Below, piece after piece: positions 101-9,469 of a stretch of 13,352 nucleotides of DNA (within the stretch, counting starts at the first letter, position 1; each line of letters starts with the position of its first letter). The stretch is from a virus (Duplodnaviria > Heunggongvirae > Uroviricota > Caudoviricetes), in the IMG/VR virus record IMGVR_UViG_2690316028_000011; one strand, written 5' to 3'. A program made the position numbers and the translations under genes. A model generated the notes under the pieces. It was given only the letters and a program-made list of their open reading frames with translations. It was not told the origin of the DNA and did no database searches.

Positions 101-190
101 GAATAGATGTTCGGGCCTTACGCTAATGTAACTTCTTTCCTTCTTCGAACCAAACCGTGTACACCATCCGTTATCTGCGGAGGTGAGGCT

Positions 191-406
191 ATGAAATCCA
201 TGGATAAGTTAACAACGGGCATCGCCTACAGCACCTCTGCAGGCAGTGCTGGCTACTGGTTTTTACAGTTGCTCGATAAAGTCACGCCCTCACAGTGGGC
301 GGCAATAGGTGTATTGGGTAGTCTGGTATTTGGCATGCTGACGTATCTGACAAACCTTTATTTCAAGATTAAAGAAGACAGGCGTAAGGTTGCGAGAAGA
401 GAGTAA
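191..406 (+). CDS. essQ: Phage-21-type class II holin (pinholin) with dual-start motif M-K-S-M
   Basis: 71-aa product [25 protein letters not shown]...[17 protein letters not shown] matches the S21/EssQ pinholin pattern with two predicted TM segments. Strong SD GGAGGTGAGG lies just upstream of the ATG at 191. The six-frame ORF (107..406) extends upstream, but the RBS supports 191. Confidence 0.85.
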
Positions 407-1283: not shown

Positions 1284-2311
<1,028 letters not shown>

Positions 2312-2494: not shown

Positions 2495-2523
2495 TTGCTA
2501 TGGTTGGTTAATCATGCGTTAAT
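2495..2523 (+). promoter_or_regulatory. Candidate sigma70 promoter for cspI with long AT-rich 5' UTR
   Basis: TTGCTA (2495-2500), 17-bp spacer, GTTAAT (2518-2523; compare cspA -10 CTTAAT). Would give a 5' UTR of roughly 145 nt, typical of the cspA family. Sequence-pattern inference only. Confidence 0.3.
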
Positions 2524-2674
2524 GGTGTTCTGGTTTGTTACAAAATTATCTGAAGCAGTCATTGTTATAATTTTATTATTTGTACCTCTTGAGATTTCCT
2601 TGTTGGTTTTTCTCTCTGATATTTTTTTTCGGACCATTCTGCCCAAGGGCTAACTTCTTCAAAAGGTAATAATG

Positions 2675-2887
2675 ATGTCTAACAAAATGACTGGTTTAGT
2701 GAAATGGTTTAACCCTGAAAAAGGTTTTGGTTTCATCACGCCGAAAGATGGTAGCAAAGATGTGTTTGTCCATTTCTCAGCTATTCAGAGCAACGATTTC
2801 AAAACGTTAACTGAGAATCAGGAAGTCGAATTTGGTATTGAGAACGGACCTAAAGGCCCCGCGGCTGTTCATGTTGTGGCACTTTGA
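2675..2887 (+). CDS. cspI: Cold-shock protein, CspA family
   Basis: 70-aa product [38 protein letters not shown]... carries the RNP1 (KGFGFI) and RNP2 (VFVHF) motifs. SD AAAGG with cspA-like spacing. The six-frame ORF begins one codon earlier at 2672. Confidence 0.9.
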
Positions 2888-3086
2888 GGTAGAAAATATT
2901 ACAAACCATATTCACTTTAGATGCCCGTGTTGCCATGGTTCTCAGTATAGAACATCATCTTTTGATGTTTCTGACAGGAATCCTTTCGGGGCAAAATGTA
3001 TCTTTTGTAAATCAATGATGATTACATTTGATAATATTTCACAATACTTAAATGTTAGCCGTCTGTCGTTAGATTTAAGAAAGTGA
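2871..3086 (+). CDS. Possible small zinc-ribbon protein (71 aa) immediately downstream of and overlapping the cspI 3' end
   Basis: Product contains C-P-C-C ... (about 20 aa) ... C-I-F-C, a zinc-ribbon-like arrangement. The ORF stop at 3086 is followed 7 nt later by a strong intrinsic terminator. The RBS is weak and the ATG at 2871 is the only ATG start, so this stays low confidence. Confidence 0.25.
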
Positions 3087-3092
3087 AAATGA

Positions 3093-3114
3093 AGGCTCCT
3101 TCGGGAGCTTTTTT
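3093..3114 (+). terminator. Intrinsic terminator
   Basis: Stem GCTCC (3095-3099) / GGAGC (3104-3108) with TTCG tetraloop, followed by TTTTTT (3109-3114). Confidence 0.5.
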
Positions 3115-3158
3115 GCTTAGTGTCTAGTCGATGGATACTCACATATTACGGTAACATT

Positions 3159-3389
3159 ATGAAAAAAATAATAGTTTTTTTTAACTCTGAACCAGCAATG
3201 GTAGTGCCAGTGATGACCGGAGTTAACACCATCATGCGTGAATATCCAAATGGCGAAACAACACACCTCACTGTAATGGCTGCAGGGTTTCCATCTCTGA
3301 CCGGAGATCATAAAGTCATTTATGTAGCAGCGGATCGACATGTAACTTCAGAAGAAATTCTGGAAGCAGCAATGAGACTCTTGAATTGA
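3159..3389 (+). CDS. ynfN: Small prophage protein, YnfN/YmcE-like (partner gene upstream of gnsB)
   Basis: ORF 3120..3389. ATG at 3159 (MKKIIVFFNSEP...) gives 76 aa. An internal ATG at 3234 gives the 51-aa product MREYPNGETTHLTV..., which matches the length I recall for K-12 YnfN. The true start is uncertain and the RBS is weak for both. Confidence 0.5.
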   Translation: MKKIIVFFNSEPAMVVPVMTGVNTIMREYPNGETTHLTVMAAGFPSLTGDHKVIYVAADRHVTSEEILEAAMRLLN

Positions 3390-3561
3390 TTTGATTCTAA
3401 TGCATTGATAATAAATGATAATCATCTTTATCTGTTTGTGTGAAATTTAGACCGTCGTATGTTGATTATTGCGATGTTTCATCTTATCTTTTATACGTTT
3501 GCTCCATATAATTGACACTACTGTGTACCAGGAAAGTCATAACAGACTAAAAGAGGAAATG

Positions 3562-3735
3562 ATGAACATTGAAGAGTTAAAAACAAAAACAGAAGCAGAT
3601 ATTTCTGAATATATAACAAAAAAAATCATTGAGCTTAAGAAAAAGACCGGGAAAGAAGTTACCAGTATCCAGTTTACTGCACGGGAAAAAATGACTGGTC
3701 TTGAAAGCTATGATATCAAGATTGATTTAATCTAG
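3562..3735 (+). CDS. gnsB: GnsA/GnsB family small protein (57 aa)
   Basis: MNIEELKTKTEADISEYITKKIIELKKKTGKEVTSIQFTAREKMTGLESYDIKIDLI, preceded by SD AAGAGGAAA. Matches the GnsA/GnsB family of prophage-encoded proteins. Confidence 0.85.
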   Translation: MNIEELKTKTEADISEYITKKIIELKKKTGKEVTSIQFTAREKMTGLESYDIKIDLI

Positions 3736-3797
3736 TCTGTTTATAGTATTAGCATCAATTTCTCATCAGATGCTATTCAACAATACAAATTACCCAT

Positions 3798-3823
3798 AAA
3801 CCTCGTTTTTACGGGGTTTTGTT
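3798..3823 (+). terminator. Intrinsic terminator after gnsB
   Basis: AAACCTCG (3798-3805) pairs with CGGGGTTT (3812-3819), one G-U wobble, loop TTTTTA, followed by a T-rich tract. Confidence 0.45.
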
Positions 3824-4030
3824 ATATTTAAACATTACCGAATAGGTATAAATCTCGATTGTCGATGGTATTGGTTGTGTGACAATACCTAATCTTTCCG
3901 GTATGCGTGAAGAGAATACAAACGACAGATTATGTAAGGGAAACGCGCTGAATCTTTCACTCTTTCATGCTGAGTGATTTGACGTTATATTTTTAGCCGT
4001 AAGTGAAGAGCAAACGCATGGAGCGACAAA

Positions 4031-4237
4031 ATGCATAAAGATCAATACACTGATGCCCCCTCCCAGGAGCAGGTTCGTGTAAAAACTATGCTTAATAGCA
4101 CCATTTCGATGGGTTACCCGGATGTTGTAATTGCATGTATAGAACATCAAGTGTCTCTGGAAGCATTCAGGGCAATTGAGGCCGCGTTAGTAAAGCACGA
4201 TAAGAATACGAAGGATTATTCCCTGGTGGTTGACTGA
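4031..4237 (+). CDS. Hypothetical small protein (68 aa)
   Basis: ATG preceded by GGAG 7 nt upstream. No recognisable family. Lies in the AT-rich cargo region between gnsB and cos. Confidence 0.4.
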
Positions 4238-4789: not shown

Positions 4790-5284
4790 ATGGATCGAGA
4801 GTTAAAAAATCTGACGCTGAATATCAGTCAACTGGCGGCATTGTCAGGTGTACATCGCCAGACTGCTGCGGCAAGGCTGCAAAATCTACCCGTTGCAGGG
4901 GGGCATGAAAGCAACCTCAAGCTTTATCGGGTGGTTGATATTGTGTCGGCATTTCTGGCATTACCACCGCCGGTTGCAGAAGGCGAAATGGACGCGCATG
5001 AGCGCAAAGCCTGGTATCAGTCTGAACGTGAGCGTCTTAAGTTCGAACAGGAAACGGCACAACTCATTCCGGCCAGTGATGTCAGACGGGAGTTTGCCAT
5101 CTGGGCAAAAGCGGTCGTGCAGGTGCTGGAGACATTACCGGATATTCTTGAACGTGACTGCGGTCTGCAGCCTGCCGCTGTGAGCCGTGTTCAGTCCATT
5201 ATTGATGATCTGCGCGATCAGATAGCCCTGCGGGTGACTGAAGCAGGTGCGGATGATGAGGAGGAATTACAGCAGGAGGAGTAA
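4790..5284 (+). CDS. Terminase small subunit (Nu1-like DNA packaging protein)
   Basis: 164-aa product with an N-terminal HTH-like segment (LNISQLAALSGVHRQTAAARL) and acidic C-terminus. Sits directly downstream of cos; its stop overlaps the start of the large terminase gene (TAATG at 5282-5286). SD GGAG upstream. Confidence 0.7.
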   Translation: MDRELKNLTLNISQLAALSGVHRQTAAARLQNLPVAGGHESNLKLYRVVDIVSAFLALPPPVAEGEMDAHERKAWYQSERERLKFEQETAQLIPASDVRREFAIWAKAVVQVLETLPDILERDCGLQPAAVSRVQSIIDDLRDQIALRVTEAGADDEEELQQEE

Positions 5285-5919
5285 TGCTGAATCAGGAAAC
5301 CGCAAAGGCAGCACGAACCGATTCAGGTTATATCCTTCGCGCACCGAGACGAATGCGGGTTGCTGATGCCGTTGCTCAGTATATGCGGGTGCCCATGGGG
5401 GCAGGGAACTCAGTCCCGTGGGATCCGCTGGTGGCACCGTATGTTATTGAGCCTATGAACTGCCTGGCCTCGCGTGAATACGACGCAGTGATATTTGTTG
5501 GCCCGGCACGAACCGGCAAGACTATCGGCCTGATTGACGGCTGGGTGATTTACAACGTGATTTGCGATCCTGCGGATATGCTGATCATTCAGATGACAGA
5601 GGAAAAAGCCCGCGAACACTCCAAAAAACGACTCGCCAGAACGTTTCGCGTCAGCCCGGAAGTGGTCAGTCGCCTGAGTCCGAACAAAAATGACAACAAC
5701 GTTTATGACAGAACATTCCTTGCTGGCAACTACCTGAAAATCGGCTGGCCGTCAGTCAATATCATGTCCTCATCAGATTATAAATGCGTCGCGCTGACGG
5801 ATTATGACCGTTTTCCGGAAGATATTGATGGCGAGGGGGATGCCTTCTCTCTTGCCTCAAAACGTACCACCACATTTATGTCCAGCGGTATGACGCTGGT
5901 GGAGAGTTCCCCCGCTGGC
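5284..5919 (+). pseudogene. Terminase large subunit (gpA-like), N-terminal fragment truncated by deletion
   Basis: Walker-A-like VIFVGPARTGKT and gpA-family ATPase-domain pattern. Homology ends about codon 205-210; the ORF then reads out of frame into gpI-derived sequence and stops at 5988. A full gpA is about 640 aa. Confidence 0.75.
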
Positions 5920-6433
5920 CATGCAGATCCCGGCGTTTCGTCAGAAACTGAGCGACGGCTGGTACCAGGTACGCATTGCCGGGCGTGATGCAGGTGAAAC
6001 CGAATTGTCTGCCCGTCTTAATGAGCCGCTGGCAAATGGTGCCGTGATCCACATCGTGCCGCGTCTGGCGGGAGCTAAAAGTGGCGGTGTGTTTCAGGTG
6101 GTGCTGGGGGCGGCGCTGATTGCGGTGGCATGGTGGAACCCTGTGGGCTGGCTGGGTGCCGCGGCTGTATCGGGCATGTATGCGGCAGGGGCCAGTATGA
6201 TCCTGGGCGGAGTGGCGCAGATGCTGGCACCGAAAGCCAGGACGCCCACGGCAGCAAGTACAGATAACGGCAAACAGAACACCTATTTCTCCTCACTGGA
6301 TAACATGGTTGCCCAGGGCAATGTTCTGCCTGTTCTGTACGGGGAAATGCGCGTGGGGTCACGCGTGGTTTCTCAGGAGATCAGCACGGCAGACGAAGGG
6401 GACGGTGGTCAGGTTGTGGTGATTGGTCGCTGA
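5912..6433 (+). pseudogene. Lambda gpI-like tail assembly protein, C-terminal fragment (fusion partner of the terminase remnant)
   Basis: From LAMQIPAFRQKLSDGWYQVRIAGRD... to ...VVSQEISTADEGDGGQVVVIGR aligns with the C-terminal roughly 175 residues of lambda gpI. The N-terminal ~45 codons are missing and a stop lies in frame just upstream at 5891. Confidence 0.8.
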
Positions 6434-6493: not shown

Positions 6494-9469
6494 ATGGGTA
6501 AAGGCAGCAGTAAGGGGCATACCCCGCGCGAAGCGAAGGACAACCTGAAATCCACGCAGCTGCTGAGTGTGATTGATGCCATCAGCGAAGGGCCGGTTGA
6601 AGGTCCGGTGGATGGATTAAAAAGCGTGCTGCTGAACAGTACGCCGGTGCTGGACAGTGAGGGGAATACCAATATATCCGGCGTCACGGTGGTGTTCCGG
6701 GCAGGTGAGCAGGAGCAGACTCCGCCGGAGGGGTTTGAATCCTCCGGCTCCGAGACGGTGCTGGGTACGGAAGTGAAATATGACACGCCGATCACCCGCA
6801 CCATTACGTCGGCAAACATCGACCGTCTGCGCTTTACCTTCGGTGTACAGGCACTGGTGGAAACCACCTCAAAGGGTGACAGGAATCCGTCGGAAGTCCG
6901 CCTGCTGGTTCAGATACAGCGTAATGGTGGCTGGGTGACGGAAAAAGACATCACCATTAAGGGCAAAACCACCTCGCAGTATCTGGCCTCGGTGGTGGTG
7001 GATAACCTGCCACCGCGCCCGTTTAATATCCGGATGCGCAGAATGACGCCGGACAGCACCACAGACCAGCTGCAGAACAAAACGCTCTGGTCGTCATACA
7101 CCGAAATCATCGATGTGAAACAGAGCTACCCGAACACGGCACTGGTCGGCGTGCAGGTGGATTCGGAGCAGTTCGGCAGCCAGCAGGTGAGCCGTAATTA
7201 TCATCTTCGCGGGCGTATTCTGCAGGTGCCGTCGAATTATAACCCGCAGACGCGGCAATACAGCGGTATCTGGGACGGAACGTTTAAACCGGCATACAGC
7301 AACAACATGGCCTGGTGTCTGTGGGATATGCTGACCCATCCACGCTACGGCATGGGGAAACGTCTTGGTGCGGCGGATGTGGACAAATGGGCGCTGTATG
7401 TCATCGGCCAGTACTGCGATCAGTCAGTACCGGACGGCTTTGGCGGCACGGAGCCGCGCATCACCTGTAATGCATACCTGACCACACAGCGCAAGGCGTG
7501 GGATGTGCTCAGTGATTTCTGCTCGGCGATGCGCTGTATGCCGGTATGGAACGGGCAGACGCTGACGTTCGTGCAGGACCGACCGTCGGATAAGGTGTGG
7601 ACCTATAACCGCAGTAATGTGGTGATGCCGGATGATGGCGCGCCGTTCCGCTACAGTTTCAGCGCCCTGAAAGACCGCCATAATGCCGTTGAGGTGAACT
7701 GGATTGACCCGGATAACGGCTGGGAGACGGCGACAGAGCTTGTTGAAGATACGCAGGCCATTGCCCGTTACGGTCGTAACGTCACGAAGATGGATGCCTT
7801 TGGCTGTACCAGCCGGGGGCAGGCGCACCGCGCCGGGCTGTGGCTGATTAAAACGGAACTGCTGGAAACGCAGACCGTGGACTTCAGCGTGGGTGCGGAA
7901 GGGCTTCGCCATGTACCGGGGGATGTCATTGAAATCTGCGATGATGACTATGCGGGTATCAGCACCGGCGGGCGCGTGCTGGCGGTGAACAGCCAGACCC
8001 GGACGCTGACGCTCGACCGTGAAATCACGCTGCCATCCTCCGGTACCACGCTGATAAGCCTGGTTGACGGTCAGGGTAATCCGGTCAGCGTGGAGGTCCA
8101 GTCCGTCACCGACGGCGTGAAGGTGAAAGTGAGCCGTGTTCCTGACGGCGTTGCAGAATACAGCGTGTGGGGGCTGAAGCTGCCGACGCTGCGCCAGCGC
8201 CTGTTCCGCTGCGTGAGTATCCGTGAGAACGATGACGGCACGTATGCCATCACCGCCGTGCAGCATGTACCTTCTGCCCGTAAGGTGAATGGTAAGGCGC
8301 TTTCAGCGGATATAACACTGACGCCGAAAGATATTGGTACGCTTAACTCAACAACAATGTCATTCAGCGGTGGTGCTGGTTGGTTCAAATTAGCAACGGT
8401 AACCATGCCACAGGCGAGTTCTGTTGTTTCAATTACGTTGATTGGTGGCGCGGGATTTAACGTGGGGTCACCTCAACAGGCAGGTATATCTGAACTTGTT
8501 TTGCGTGCAGGTAATGGTAATCCGAAGGGGATTACTGGTGCTTTATGGCAGCGCACATCGACAGGGTTTACAAATTTTGCCTGGGTCAATACATCTGGTG
8601 ATACTTACGATATTTACGTTGCAATCGGAAATTATGCGACTGGTGTAAATATTCAATGGGATTATACCAGTAATGCCAGCGTGACGATTCATACGTCACC
8701 AGCATATTCTGCTAATAAGCCGGAAGGGTTAACGGACGGTACAGTTTATTCACTCTATACGCCATCAGAGCAGTTTTATCCGCCTGGCGCACCAATCCCG
8801 TGGCCATCAGATACCGTTCCGTCTGGCTATGCCCTGATGCAGGGGCAGACTTTTGACAAATCTGCATACCCGAAACTTGCAGCCGCTTATCCGTCAGCCG
8901 TGATCCCTGATATGCGTGGCTGGACGATTAAGGGCAAACCCGCCAGTGGTCGTGCCGTATTGTCTCAGGAACAGGACGGCATTAAATCGCACACCCACAG
9001 CGCCAGCGCATCCAGTACGGATTTGGGGACGAAAAACACATCGTCGTTTGATTACGGAACCAAATCCACGAATAACACCGGGGCGCATACCCATAGTATT
9101 AGCGGGACTGCAAATAGTGCCGGTGCGCACCAACACAAGAGTTCCGGTGCATTTGGTGGCACGAACACGAGCATTTTCCCTAATGGTTATACCGCGATTT
9201 TAAATCTAAGCGCGGGGATTATGAGCACAACAAGCGGTAGTGGCCAGACTCGTAATGCAGGGAAGACATCATCAGATGGTGCTCATACCCACTCGCTGTC
9301 CGGCACTGCTGCAAGCGCAGGCGCACATGCACATACTGTCGGTATTGGTGCTCATACGCACTCCGTTGCGATTGGTTCACATGGACACACCATCACCGTT
9401 AACGCTGCTGGTAACGCGGAAAACACCGTCAAAAACATCGCATTTAACTATATTGTGAGGCTTGCATAA
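6494..9469 (+). CDS. Chimeric tail tip / tail fibre protein: lambda J-like N-terminal ~593 aa fused to a side-tail-fibre-like C-terminal domain with His-rich repeats
   Basis: N-terminus [24 protein letters not shown]... through ...[10 protein letters not shown] is near-identical to lambda host-specificity protein J. After nt ~8272 the sequence diverges, GC content drops, and the C-terminus carries repeated G-A-H-T-H-S / AHAHT / SHGHT motifs like those of Stf/T4 gp37-type fibres. Strong SD GGAG/GAGG upstream. Confidence 0.9.

Follow-up and report, generated by a model that had tools for sequence, protein, structure and literature searches.

The genes ynfN and gnsB are probably two independent small protein genes, which make up the downstream half of a four-gene cassette of cold-shock cargo, cspI-ynfQ-ynfN-gnsB (about 2517–3828), and not a toxin with its antidote. 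The window analyzed here is the whole stretch of 13,352 nucleotides of the Caudoviricetes record IMGVR_UViG_2690316028_000011, and its first letter is position 1. A preliminary description of this DNA had proposed that a small ORF and gnsB, lying directly one after the other, constitute a two-gene module resembling the ymcE-gnsA pair, with toxin-like behavior on overexpression reported for GnsA. Both genes are known, annotated genes of an Escherichia coli prophage of the Qin type, and they do not represent a new kind of system.

A cold-shock cassette in a Qin-type prophage

The segment between positions 2600 and 4300 of the window was 99.9% identical to chromosomes of the E. coli B lineage (among them REL606, ATCC 8739, and AS19), and the window as a whole is the late region of a defective lambdoid prophage of the Qin type (Table 1). 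The gene order annotated by RefSeq in these 99.9%-identical genomes is cspI, ynfQ, a pseudo-ORF marked as “too short”, ynfN, gnsB and a 68-aa hypothetical protein. The RefSeq lengths of ynfN (231 nt with the stop codon included, equal to 76 aa) and gnsB (174 nt) match those of the ORFs in the window. The block from cspI to gnsB is situated between Rz and the Nu1-like gene, and the same block was found after the lysis genes in the sequenced phages HannyBb, mEp460, 2H10, Tritos, PhiR63_1, and PhiR42_1, in which YnfN was 93–100% identical. In the lysis region of the window, a DUF1327 protein was also listed after the holin and before the endolysin.

Table 1. Features of the window, with their positions, strand and supporting evidence.
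Feature	Position	Strand	Evidence or remarks
Holin	107–406		
Endolysin	1284–1817		
Rz (lysis)	1814–2311		
cspA-type thermoregulator leader and cspI	2517–2933	+	Rfam RF01766, 109.8 bits (gathering score 78), E 1.2e-28; head of the cassette
cspI coding sequence	2675–2887	+	Pfam CSD, 1.7e-31; RefSeq name cspI
ynfQ, YmcF-like CxxC zinc-ribbon protein, 62 aa	2898–3086	+	Pfam PF23641, 6.7e-33; RefSeq
Intrinsic-terminator-like hairpin, AAGGCUCC-UUCG-GGAGCUUUU and U tract	3091–3114	+	Between ynfQ and ynfN
ynfN	3159–3389	+	ATG 3159, 76 codons, stop TGA 3387–3389
ynfN-gnsB spacer, 172 nt	3390–3561	+	AT-rich
gnsB	3562–3735	+	ATG 3562, TAG 3733–3735, 57 aa, GnsA/GnsB family
Intrinsic terminator after gnsB	3798–3828	+	Terminator scan; hairpin 3798–3819 and T-rich tract; closes the cassette
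orf68 (phrog_657)			Downstream of the cspI-gnsB block; 68-aa hypothetical protein in RefSeq
Nu1-like DUF1441 gene (terminase)	4790–5284		
Terminase ATPase fragment joined to gpI fragment			After the Nu1-like gene
gpJ/tail-fibre gene	6494–9469		Followed by the tail-fibre assembly gene
Pin invertase, ydfK-like gene, ydfJ			Last genes listed in the window

In lambdoid phages, cargo genes known as “morons” occupy the slot between the lysis genes and cos/Nu1, as bor does in lambda. The cspI-gnsB block resembles them in that it occupies the same slot, brings along regulatory signals and a terminator of its own, and is not known to be required for phage growth. Unlike the surface and virulence morons, however, its cargo is a cold-shock and lipid-adaptation set.

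The cassette has the organization of the cspA type, that is, a csp gene led by a thermoregulator, with small genes downstream in the same direction up to the next strong terminator. No match to Rfam other than the cspA thermoregulator was obtained. YnfQ was 68–69% identical to K-12 YmcF, and the hairpin that follows ynfQ folded at -12.4 kcal/mol (z = -1.9) and was present in every type of cassette. This hairpin is overlapped by a 12-codon remnant of the K-12 gene ynfR, which is the “too short” pseudogene of RefSeq. The terminator that had been noticed after gnsB was recovered by the scan, with its hairpin called at 3798–3819; it folded at -11 kcal/mol (z = -2.5) and is conserved in the Qin prophage of K-12. 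When one-genome-per-species contigs were surveyed, 25 gns loci were found, and all 25 had a csp gene followed by ymcF or ynfQ upstream.

The product of gnsB matched the Pfam profile PF08178 (GnsAB_toxin) with a value of 2.1e-33 and 114.5 bits (cut-off 27), residues 1–54 covering the entire profile of 54 positions, and this full-length match above the gathering score places it in the GnsA/GnsB family. The conserved start of the gene is the second of two adjacent ATGs. GnsB was 65% identical to GnsA, for which structures have been solved (4XO1 and 4XO2; E 7.9e-20). Relatives of Gns were found in Escherichia, Shigella, Citrobacter, Hafnia, Leclercia, and Kosakonia.

The spacer between ynfN and gnsB contains a block at 3460–3480 (TGTTGATTATTGCGATGTTTC) that was conserved across the types of cassette, as seen in a multiple alignment and in a chain of pairwise BLASTN matches. 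It also contains a perfect TATAAT at 3507–3512 and the Shine-Dalgarno sequence of gnsB, AGAGG, at 3552–3556. A terminator scan of the spacer gave no hit, and a scan for consensus sigma-70 promoters called none on the + strand of it. In the conserved block, a TTGxxx resembles a -35 element, and the -10 is poor. Since the scan called no promoter, the case for a promoter of gnsB is one of conservation. A structured RNA in the leaders of gnsB and gnsA was also considered and was rejected, with z values of -0.02, 0.52, -1.37, and 0.74.

Within K-12, the closest counterpart is the Qin segment cspI-ynfQ-ynfR-ynfN-gnsB (b1552, b4724, b4749, b1551, and b1550), in which genes, order and orientation are those of the window. 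GnsB was 93% identical between the two, YnfN was 93% identical over residues 7–76, and the terminators and the spacer were equal. The differences are a shorter run of T within ynfN (T7 for T8), as a result of which the K-12 gene is annotated with 51 aa, and a ynfR of 21 codons in K-12 where the window holds the 12-codon remnant. Downstream, the window continues with orf68, the Nu1-like gene and the tail genes, whereas K-12 Qin continues with ydfO/ynfO/nohA.

Start codon and family of YnfN

The small ORF noted upstream of gnsB in the same orientation was confirmed as a frame of 76 codons from 3159, which is annotated in RefSeq. Its start had been described as ambiguous, and the annotations do differ, since K-12 is given a protein of 51 aa and the B strains one of 76 aa; the 51-codon version begins at an ATG in the same frame at 3234, which is the start used in the K-12 annotation. 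The question is settled: the start of ynfN is ATG 3159 and its product has 76 aa, with five independent lines in agreement. Distant homologues with 30–74% identity from Enterobacterales and phages (Citrobacter, Enterobacter, Klebsiella, Kosakonia, Leclercia, Pantoea, Pectobacterium, Shimwellia, and phages) were nearly all 75–76 aa long, and all began with M-[KR]-x-V-[IL]-V-F-F-N. Met26, with which the short form would begin, is not conserved, the aligned residue being Leu or Glu in several homologues. In the comparison of E. coli with Citrobacter by the Nei-Gojobori method, dN/dS was 0.05–0.15 for codons 1–25 and 0.03–0.18 for codons 26–76. The two other frames across ynfN contained 4–12 stops and gave pN/pS values of 0.7–4.3 between E. 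coli and Citrobacter.

The form annotated in K-12 was traced to a homopolymer. A run of eight T (T8) is located at 3175–3182 of the window, and K-12 has seven (T7), a difference of 1 bp that closes the upstream frame after 14 codons. This loss explains the annotation of the 51-aa tail alone, and the 51-aa YnfN of K-12 is a truncated allele originating from a 1-bp deletion in the T8 run. In IMG/VR, at least 119 contigs carried the 38-nt start region with T8 intact, and 24 carried it with T7.

The opposite reading, in which the K-12 annotation is correct and the functional product is the 51-aa protein from ATG 3234, preceded by 25 codons of a leader or upstream ORF, is extremely unlikely. Codons 1–25 are under purifying selection, the N-terminus is conserved throughout the family and Met26 is not, the N-terminal strands belong to a confidently predicted fold (see below), and the 1-bp deletion accounts for the K-12 form. 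These observations stand against the annotation of the short form in K-12 and in many other genomes, the occurrence of its exact sequence on at least 1000 contigs, the existence of a PHROG family of 51 positions (phrog_4911), and a GGAG located 11 nt upstream of 3234, all of which speak for the short protein.

When AlphaFold2 was run on the family alignment, YnfN was predicted with a mean pLDDT of 89.5 and a pTM of 0.77 as five beta-strands and a C-terminal helix. Residues 2–7 and 14–18 form the first two strands, with a pLDDT of about 93, and the 51-aa form would be without these two of the five predicted strands. The preliminary description had called the N-terminus hydrophobic, which is right as a statement on composition (MKKIIVFFNSEPAMVVPVM); the segment is predicted as two strands of a globular sheet. 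A signal peptide or membrane helix at this N-terminus was also contemplated and was ruled out by the confident beta-strand prediction of AlphaFold2.

YnfN matched phrog_3425 (1.1e-55) over 76 of its 76 positions, a family that PHROGs lists as of unknown function. Members of this family have about 75–76 aa and share MKKV(I/L)VFFN, YP(N/D)G, and (A/S)DR-x-(V/L)-x-S-x-E(I/V), and the protein of the window is a typical full-length one, with the MKKxIVFFN start and the YPNGE and ASDRxVTSEEI motifs. It differs from most of the members examined in its surroundings, since those have csp as a neighbor and lack a gns gene close by. No match of YnfN was found in Pfam, NCBIfam or PADLOC, and a sequence profile search of the PDB returned nothing below an E-value of 0.02. 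With Foldseek, the best hit in the PDB had an E-value of 0.32 and a TM-score below 0.4. The best hit in BFVD had an E-value of 7.7e-3 and a TM-score of 0.47. Neither is a significant fold match, and the BFVD hits were uncharacterised phage proteins, from which no functional inference was drawn. The family is spread across many genera of Enterobacterales, much more widely than Gns.

Relation to ymcE-gnsA and to toxin-antitoxin modules

The preliminary description had mentioned the order ymcE then gnsA in another E. coli prophage. This order exists in K-12, where the genes cspG-ymcF-ymcE-gnsA (b0990, b4723, b0991, and b4517) follow one another and ymcE-gnsA lies at 1,051,847–1,052,240; the locus is, however, chromosomal, after cspG-ymcF and outside any annotated prophage. 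As judged by sequence comparison, the blocks cspG-ymcF-ymcE-gnsA and cspI-ynfQ-ynfN-gnsB are paralogous cassettes of the form csp - ymcF/ynfQ - X - gns. The two pairs do correspond in position, because both loci are paralogous four-gene cassettes. CspG was 79% identical to CspI, YmcF 68% to YnfQ, and GnsA 65% to GnsB, and the hairpin behind the second gene, the TTGATTATTGA block (3460–3480 in the window), and the AGAAGAGG ribosome-binding region before gns are common to the two loci. They differ at the third position. The cspG cassette is without ynfN, and its ymcE extends over the last part of ymcF, then over the hairpin and the conserved block, and overlaps the first 11 nt of gnsA, whereas ynfN and gnsB are 172 nt apart.

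YnfN and YmcE gave no BLASTP alignment at E ≤ 100. The ymcE ORF aligned instead with the DNA of the ynfN-gns spacer, both in an alignment with Citrobacter intermediates and in pairwise BLASTN. Compared directly, K-12 ymcE and the window gave a weak match (12 of 12 bases, E 0.14), and it is the series of significant matches by way of Citrobacter (E 1e-4 to 3e-7) on which the homology depends. A homology between ymcE and ynfN themselves, apparent in a three-way MAFFT alignment, was ruled out by the wider Citrobacter alignment and by pairwise BLASTN.

Moreover, ymcE shows no coding constraint, as far as the compared sequences indicate. In the comparison of E. coli with E. albertii, ymcE had a pN/pS of 0.85, with 5, 8 and 5 substitutions over the three codon positions, and the values for its neighbors in the same two genomes were 0.10 (cspG), 0.14 (ymcF), and 0.02 (gnsA). 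E. albertii and three further Escherichia lineages lack the ATG of K-12 ymcE, the frame is interrupted by an in-frame stop in one E. coli and by a frameshift in one Escherichia strain, and one Citrobacter locus retains just its last third. The approximately 125 nt before gnsA differed by a single substitution between E. coli and E. albertii, while neighboring synonymous sites differed by 24–43%. The constraint before gnsA is at the nucleotide level, as expected of a promoter and leader. No significant RNA fold was detected before gnsA.

The third position of the cassette varied over the 25 gns loci, being occupied by ynfN, by ymcE, or by neither in two Citrobacter loci (L015 and L017), and gns was intact throughout. 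The gene gns is without ynfN at all loci of the gnsA type and at L015 and L017, and it is intact in the absence of both ynfN and an intact ymcE at L015, L017, L020, and L023. Conversely, ynfN was found without gns in at least five contexts, and most of the YnfN contexts examined showed no gns nearby. In phage PHB10, csp genes and ynfN are directly followed by a terminator; in locus L113, csp, a ymcF-like gene, a hairpin, ynfN, and an unrelated gene succeed one another; in locus L111, a csp gene lies between two YnfN paralogues and a terminator comes next; and in Klebsiella and Pectobacterium ynfN follows divergent csp genes. None of these arrangements includes gns. Where both genes occur, the distance between them is 172 nt in the window and about 210–335 nt in Citrobacter. 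They lie 1.9 kb apart in Kosakonia, and in a Leclercia prophage (L264) they are placed between Rz and Nu1, 440 nt apart, with a terminator between them, no csp, and a YnfN of 47% identity. The recurrence of ynfN and gns near each other was seen in three unrelated arrangements (E. coli/Citrobacter, Leclercia, and Kosakonia). Taken from the gene arrangements, the distribution is that of modular cargo genes in a common phage slot, not that of an obligate toxin-antidote pair.

These data bear directly on the proposal that ynfN and gnsB make up a type II-like toxin-antitoxin (addiction) module with GnsB as the toxin and YnfN as the antitoxin, as proposed for YmcE-GnsA. A toxin label for the family does exist: Pfam and NCBI use the names “GnsA/GnsB toxin” and “addiction module toxin”, and ymcE-gnsA is among the E. 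coli type II pairs listed in the literature (PMC8484670). The label traces to a structure paper (Wei 2015), which is cited as the primary report of toxicity and as treating GnsA-YmcE as a toxin-antitoxin pair, and to review tables (PMC8484670). A small gene in the same orientation is located upstream of gnsB in the window with no terminator in between, and the adjacency of ynfN and gns appears again in the Leclercia prophage, where YnfN identity is just 47%. Nevertheless, we consider this proposal very unlikely. The two genes of a type II module are expected close together in one operon, either overlapping or separated by a few nucleotides, and here the spacer of 172 nt leaves neither overlap nor translational coupling. 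Toxin and antitoxin of that type co-occur strictly, and here each gene is found alone, gns at the four loci named above and ynfN in its gns-free contexts; the YnfN family extends over many Enterobacterales genera and the Gns relatives found over the six named above. A terminator separates the two genes in L264, and PADLOC gave no match. The resemblance to ymcE-gnsA as a self-contained module did not hold either, since YnfN has no similarity to YmcE and ymcE matches the spacer and is itself unconstrained.

The reported effects of gnsA and gnsB also argue against a toxin. Cloned gnsA or gnsB alone (pCA-gnsA and pCA-gnsB) is reported to be beneficial from a plasmid, rescuing cold-sensitive growth and restoring the 16:1 and 18:1 fatty acids without killing (preprint, bioRxiv 10.1101/2024.03.27.586906). 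As summarized in that preprint, Sugai 2001 described, for K-12 gnsB among others, multicopy suppression of fabA6(Ts) and of the cold sensitivity of a secG-null strain, and multicopy Gns family genes are reported to raise the unsaturated fatty acids of the membrane; K-12 GnsB is 93% identical to that of the window (Sugai 2001, via bioRxiv 10.1101/2024.03.27.586906).

A different link between the two genes was also weighed, in which YnfN and GnsB work together in adapting the cell to cold, not as toxin and antitoxin, and travel together for that reason; both might, for example, influence the homeostasis of membrane lipids or fatty acids, or share a target that depends on Csp. Their co-occurrence in three gene arrangements at deep divergence is consistent with it, as are their place in a cassette that opens with a cold-shock gene and thermoregulator and, in the E. 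coli and Citrobacter forms, the lack of a terminator from one gene to the other. But each gene is often alone, and both sit where cargo genes in general are found, between Rz and Nu1, so that the slot and not a function may account for their co-occurrence. We regard such a partnership as unlikely.

As for YnfN itself, a composite proposal was also formulated, to which we give little weight. According to it, YnfN would represent an uncharacterised, fold-novel family of about 75 aa that strong purifying selection has conserved throughout Enterobacterales, that is tied genetically to csp (and in phages also to gns), and that modulates the cold-shock response, for example as a partner of Csp or through the lipid effect of GnsB; the K-12 allele would be truncated and probably inactive; and the YmcE antitoxin would be an annotation artefact over the promoter and leader of gnsA. 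If true, an inactive K-12 allele would explain the absence of a reported phenotype, and YmcE as an artefact would remove the basis for naming GnsA/GnsB an addiction-module toxin.

Proposed expression of the cassette and its significance

The reading preferred here, two independent genes in a cold-shock cargo cassette, suggests the following course of expression. Transcription would begin at the cold-regulated cspI promoter and its thermoregulator leader, and part of the cold-induced transcription would pass the weak hairpin after ynfQ into ynfN and then into gnsB. CspA-family proteins are antiterminators. Read-through from ynfN into gnsB would be expected because no terminator lies between them. 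Judging from its conservation, the spacer block probably provides gnsB with an additional promoter of its own, and the transcript of the cassette would end at 3798–3828. GnsB would then increase the unsaturation of the membrane. YnfN and GnsB would be separate modules that phages and chromosomes have combined in various ways, YnfN being mostly linked to csp.

Published data on K-12 describe the behavior of several of these genes. In a study of AZT and SspA, cspI, ynfQ, and ynfN were induced together, 6.5, 5.9, and 5.8-fold, and their dependence on SspA was 38, 42, and 51-fold, respectively (PMC11228462). YnfR-SPA, the ORF of which spans the hairpin, was strongly induced by cold shock (PMC6001520), and the RNA across ymcF and ymcE rises along with cspG (PMC13058169).

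These results have consequences for the annotation of both genes. The gene ynfN is to be read as one of 76 aa, with the reference allele of K-12 as a homopolymer frameshift variant, and since that allele is truncated, negative results obtained with K-12 ynfN reveal little of the family as a whole. For gnsB, the label “addiction module toxin” rests on the ymcE-gnsA model. Given that ymcE is unconstrained and that gns is kept without a partner gene, the comparative data fail to support this label, and annotation pipelines and toxin-antitoxin catalogues that include ymcE-gnsA may propagate an error. The unit worth studying is the entire phage-borne cold-shock cassette, with its Csp, zinc-ribbon protein, YnfN, and Gns, which may benefit lysogens at low temperature.

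Deletion and retained genes in the prophage

The features described here are collected in the table. A 234-aa piece of the terminase large-subunit ATPase (gpA) passes straight into a fragment of the tail assembly protein I, a junction that marks a large internal deletion of head and tail genes. The prophage is therefore defective. Downstream of gnsB, the 68-aa ORF (phrog_657) has been kept at the same position in related prophages and phages. No Pfam match was obtained for this ORF, and its counterpart in phage Tritos is annotated as YbcW-like.

Features and their coordinates (L003, E. coli K-12 cspG-ymcF-ymcE-gnsA locus; L018, Citrobacter murliniae ynfN-gns locus; L111, enterobacterial contig)
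Feature	Location	Remark
12-codon ORF, MKAPSGAFLLSV	window 3090-3128	overlaps terminator hairpin 3' of ynfQ
A7 run	window 3162-3168	within first eight ynfN codons
T8 run	window 3175-3182	within first eight ynfN codons; frameshift site of K-12 (T7)
Promoter-like site	window 3415-3444 (-)	TTCACA, 18 nt, TATCAT; 10/12 matches
Conserved stretch upstream of K-12 gnsA	L003:3950-4067	window equivalent 3460-3480
68-aa ORF	window 4031-4237	downstream of gnsB
gpA and tail assembly protein I fragments	window 5284-6433
ymcE (K-12, b0991)	L003:3848-4078
ynfN of C. murliniae	L018:2441-2668	additional A early in gene, frame broken
Two YnfN paralogues	L111:2037-3228	around a single csp-ymcF pair

Variation in ynfN and its linkage to csp

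Since about one-sixth of the IMG/VR copies of ynfN, among the matches listed, carry the T7 allele, the T8/T7 variation suggests recurrent homopolymer slippage, or possibly on/off switching. The C. murliniae locus also carries an insertion of about 120 nt in the ynfN-gns spacer. The additional A in its ynfN is an error of sequencing or, alternatively, the gene has been inactivated independently a second time. The linkage between csp and YnfN is reinforced by the arrangement in L111, where the paralogues have diverged (35% identical to each other's window counterpart).

The 12-codon ORF following ynfQ corresponds to K-12 ynfR (21 aa) in truncated form; the ynfR product has been reported as a small protein induced by cold shock (PMC6001520). 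The homologous hairpin is read through, in the same frame, by the ymcE ORF.

Conserved DNA upstream of gns and the status of ymcE

Between E. coli and E. albertii, a single substitution was found in the approximately 125 nt preceding gnsA, and nearby synonymous sites differed by 24-43%. The block TTGATTATTGA is common to all cassette types. No significant RNA structure was predicted upstream of gnsA, nor was a consensus promoter called at the conserved block. The top promoter-like score of the region belonged to the minus-strand site in the ynfN-gnsB spacer, directed into ynfN; the number of promoter-like matches across the region was not above shuffled expectation.

K-12 ymcE was compared with four further gns loci (L019, L020, L023 and the Citrobacter locus L015). 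Between E. coli and E. albertii, coding constraint was not seen (pN/pS = 0.85), and substitutions over codon positions 1, 2 and 3 numbered 5, 8 and 5. The start codon is absent from four other Escherichia lineages, the ORF is interrupted by an in-frame stop in one E. coli, and it is frameshifted in one Escherichia strain. The annotation of a "YmcE antitoxin" may itself be an artefact.
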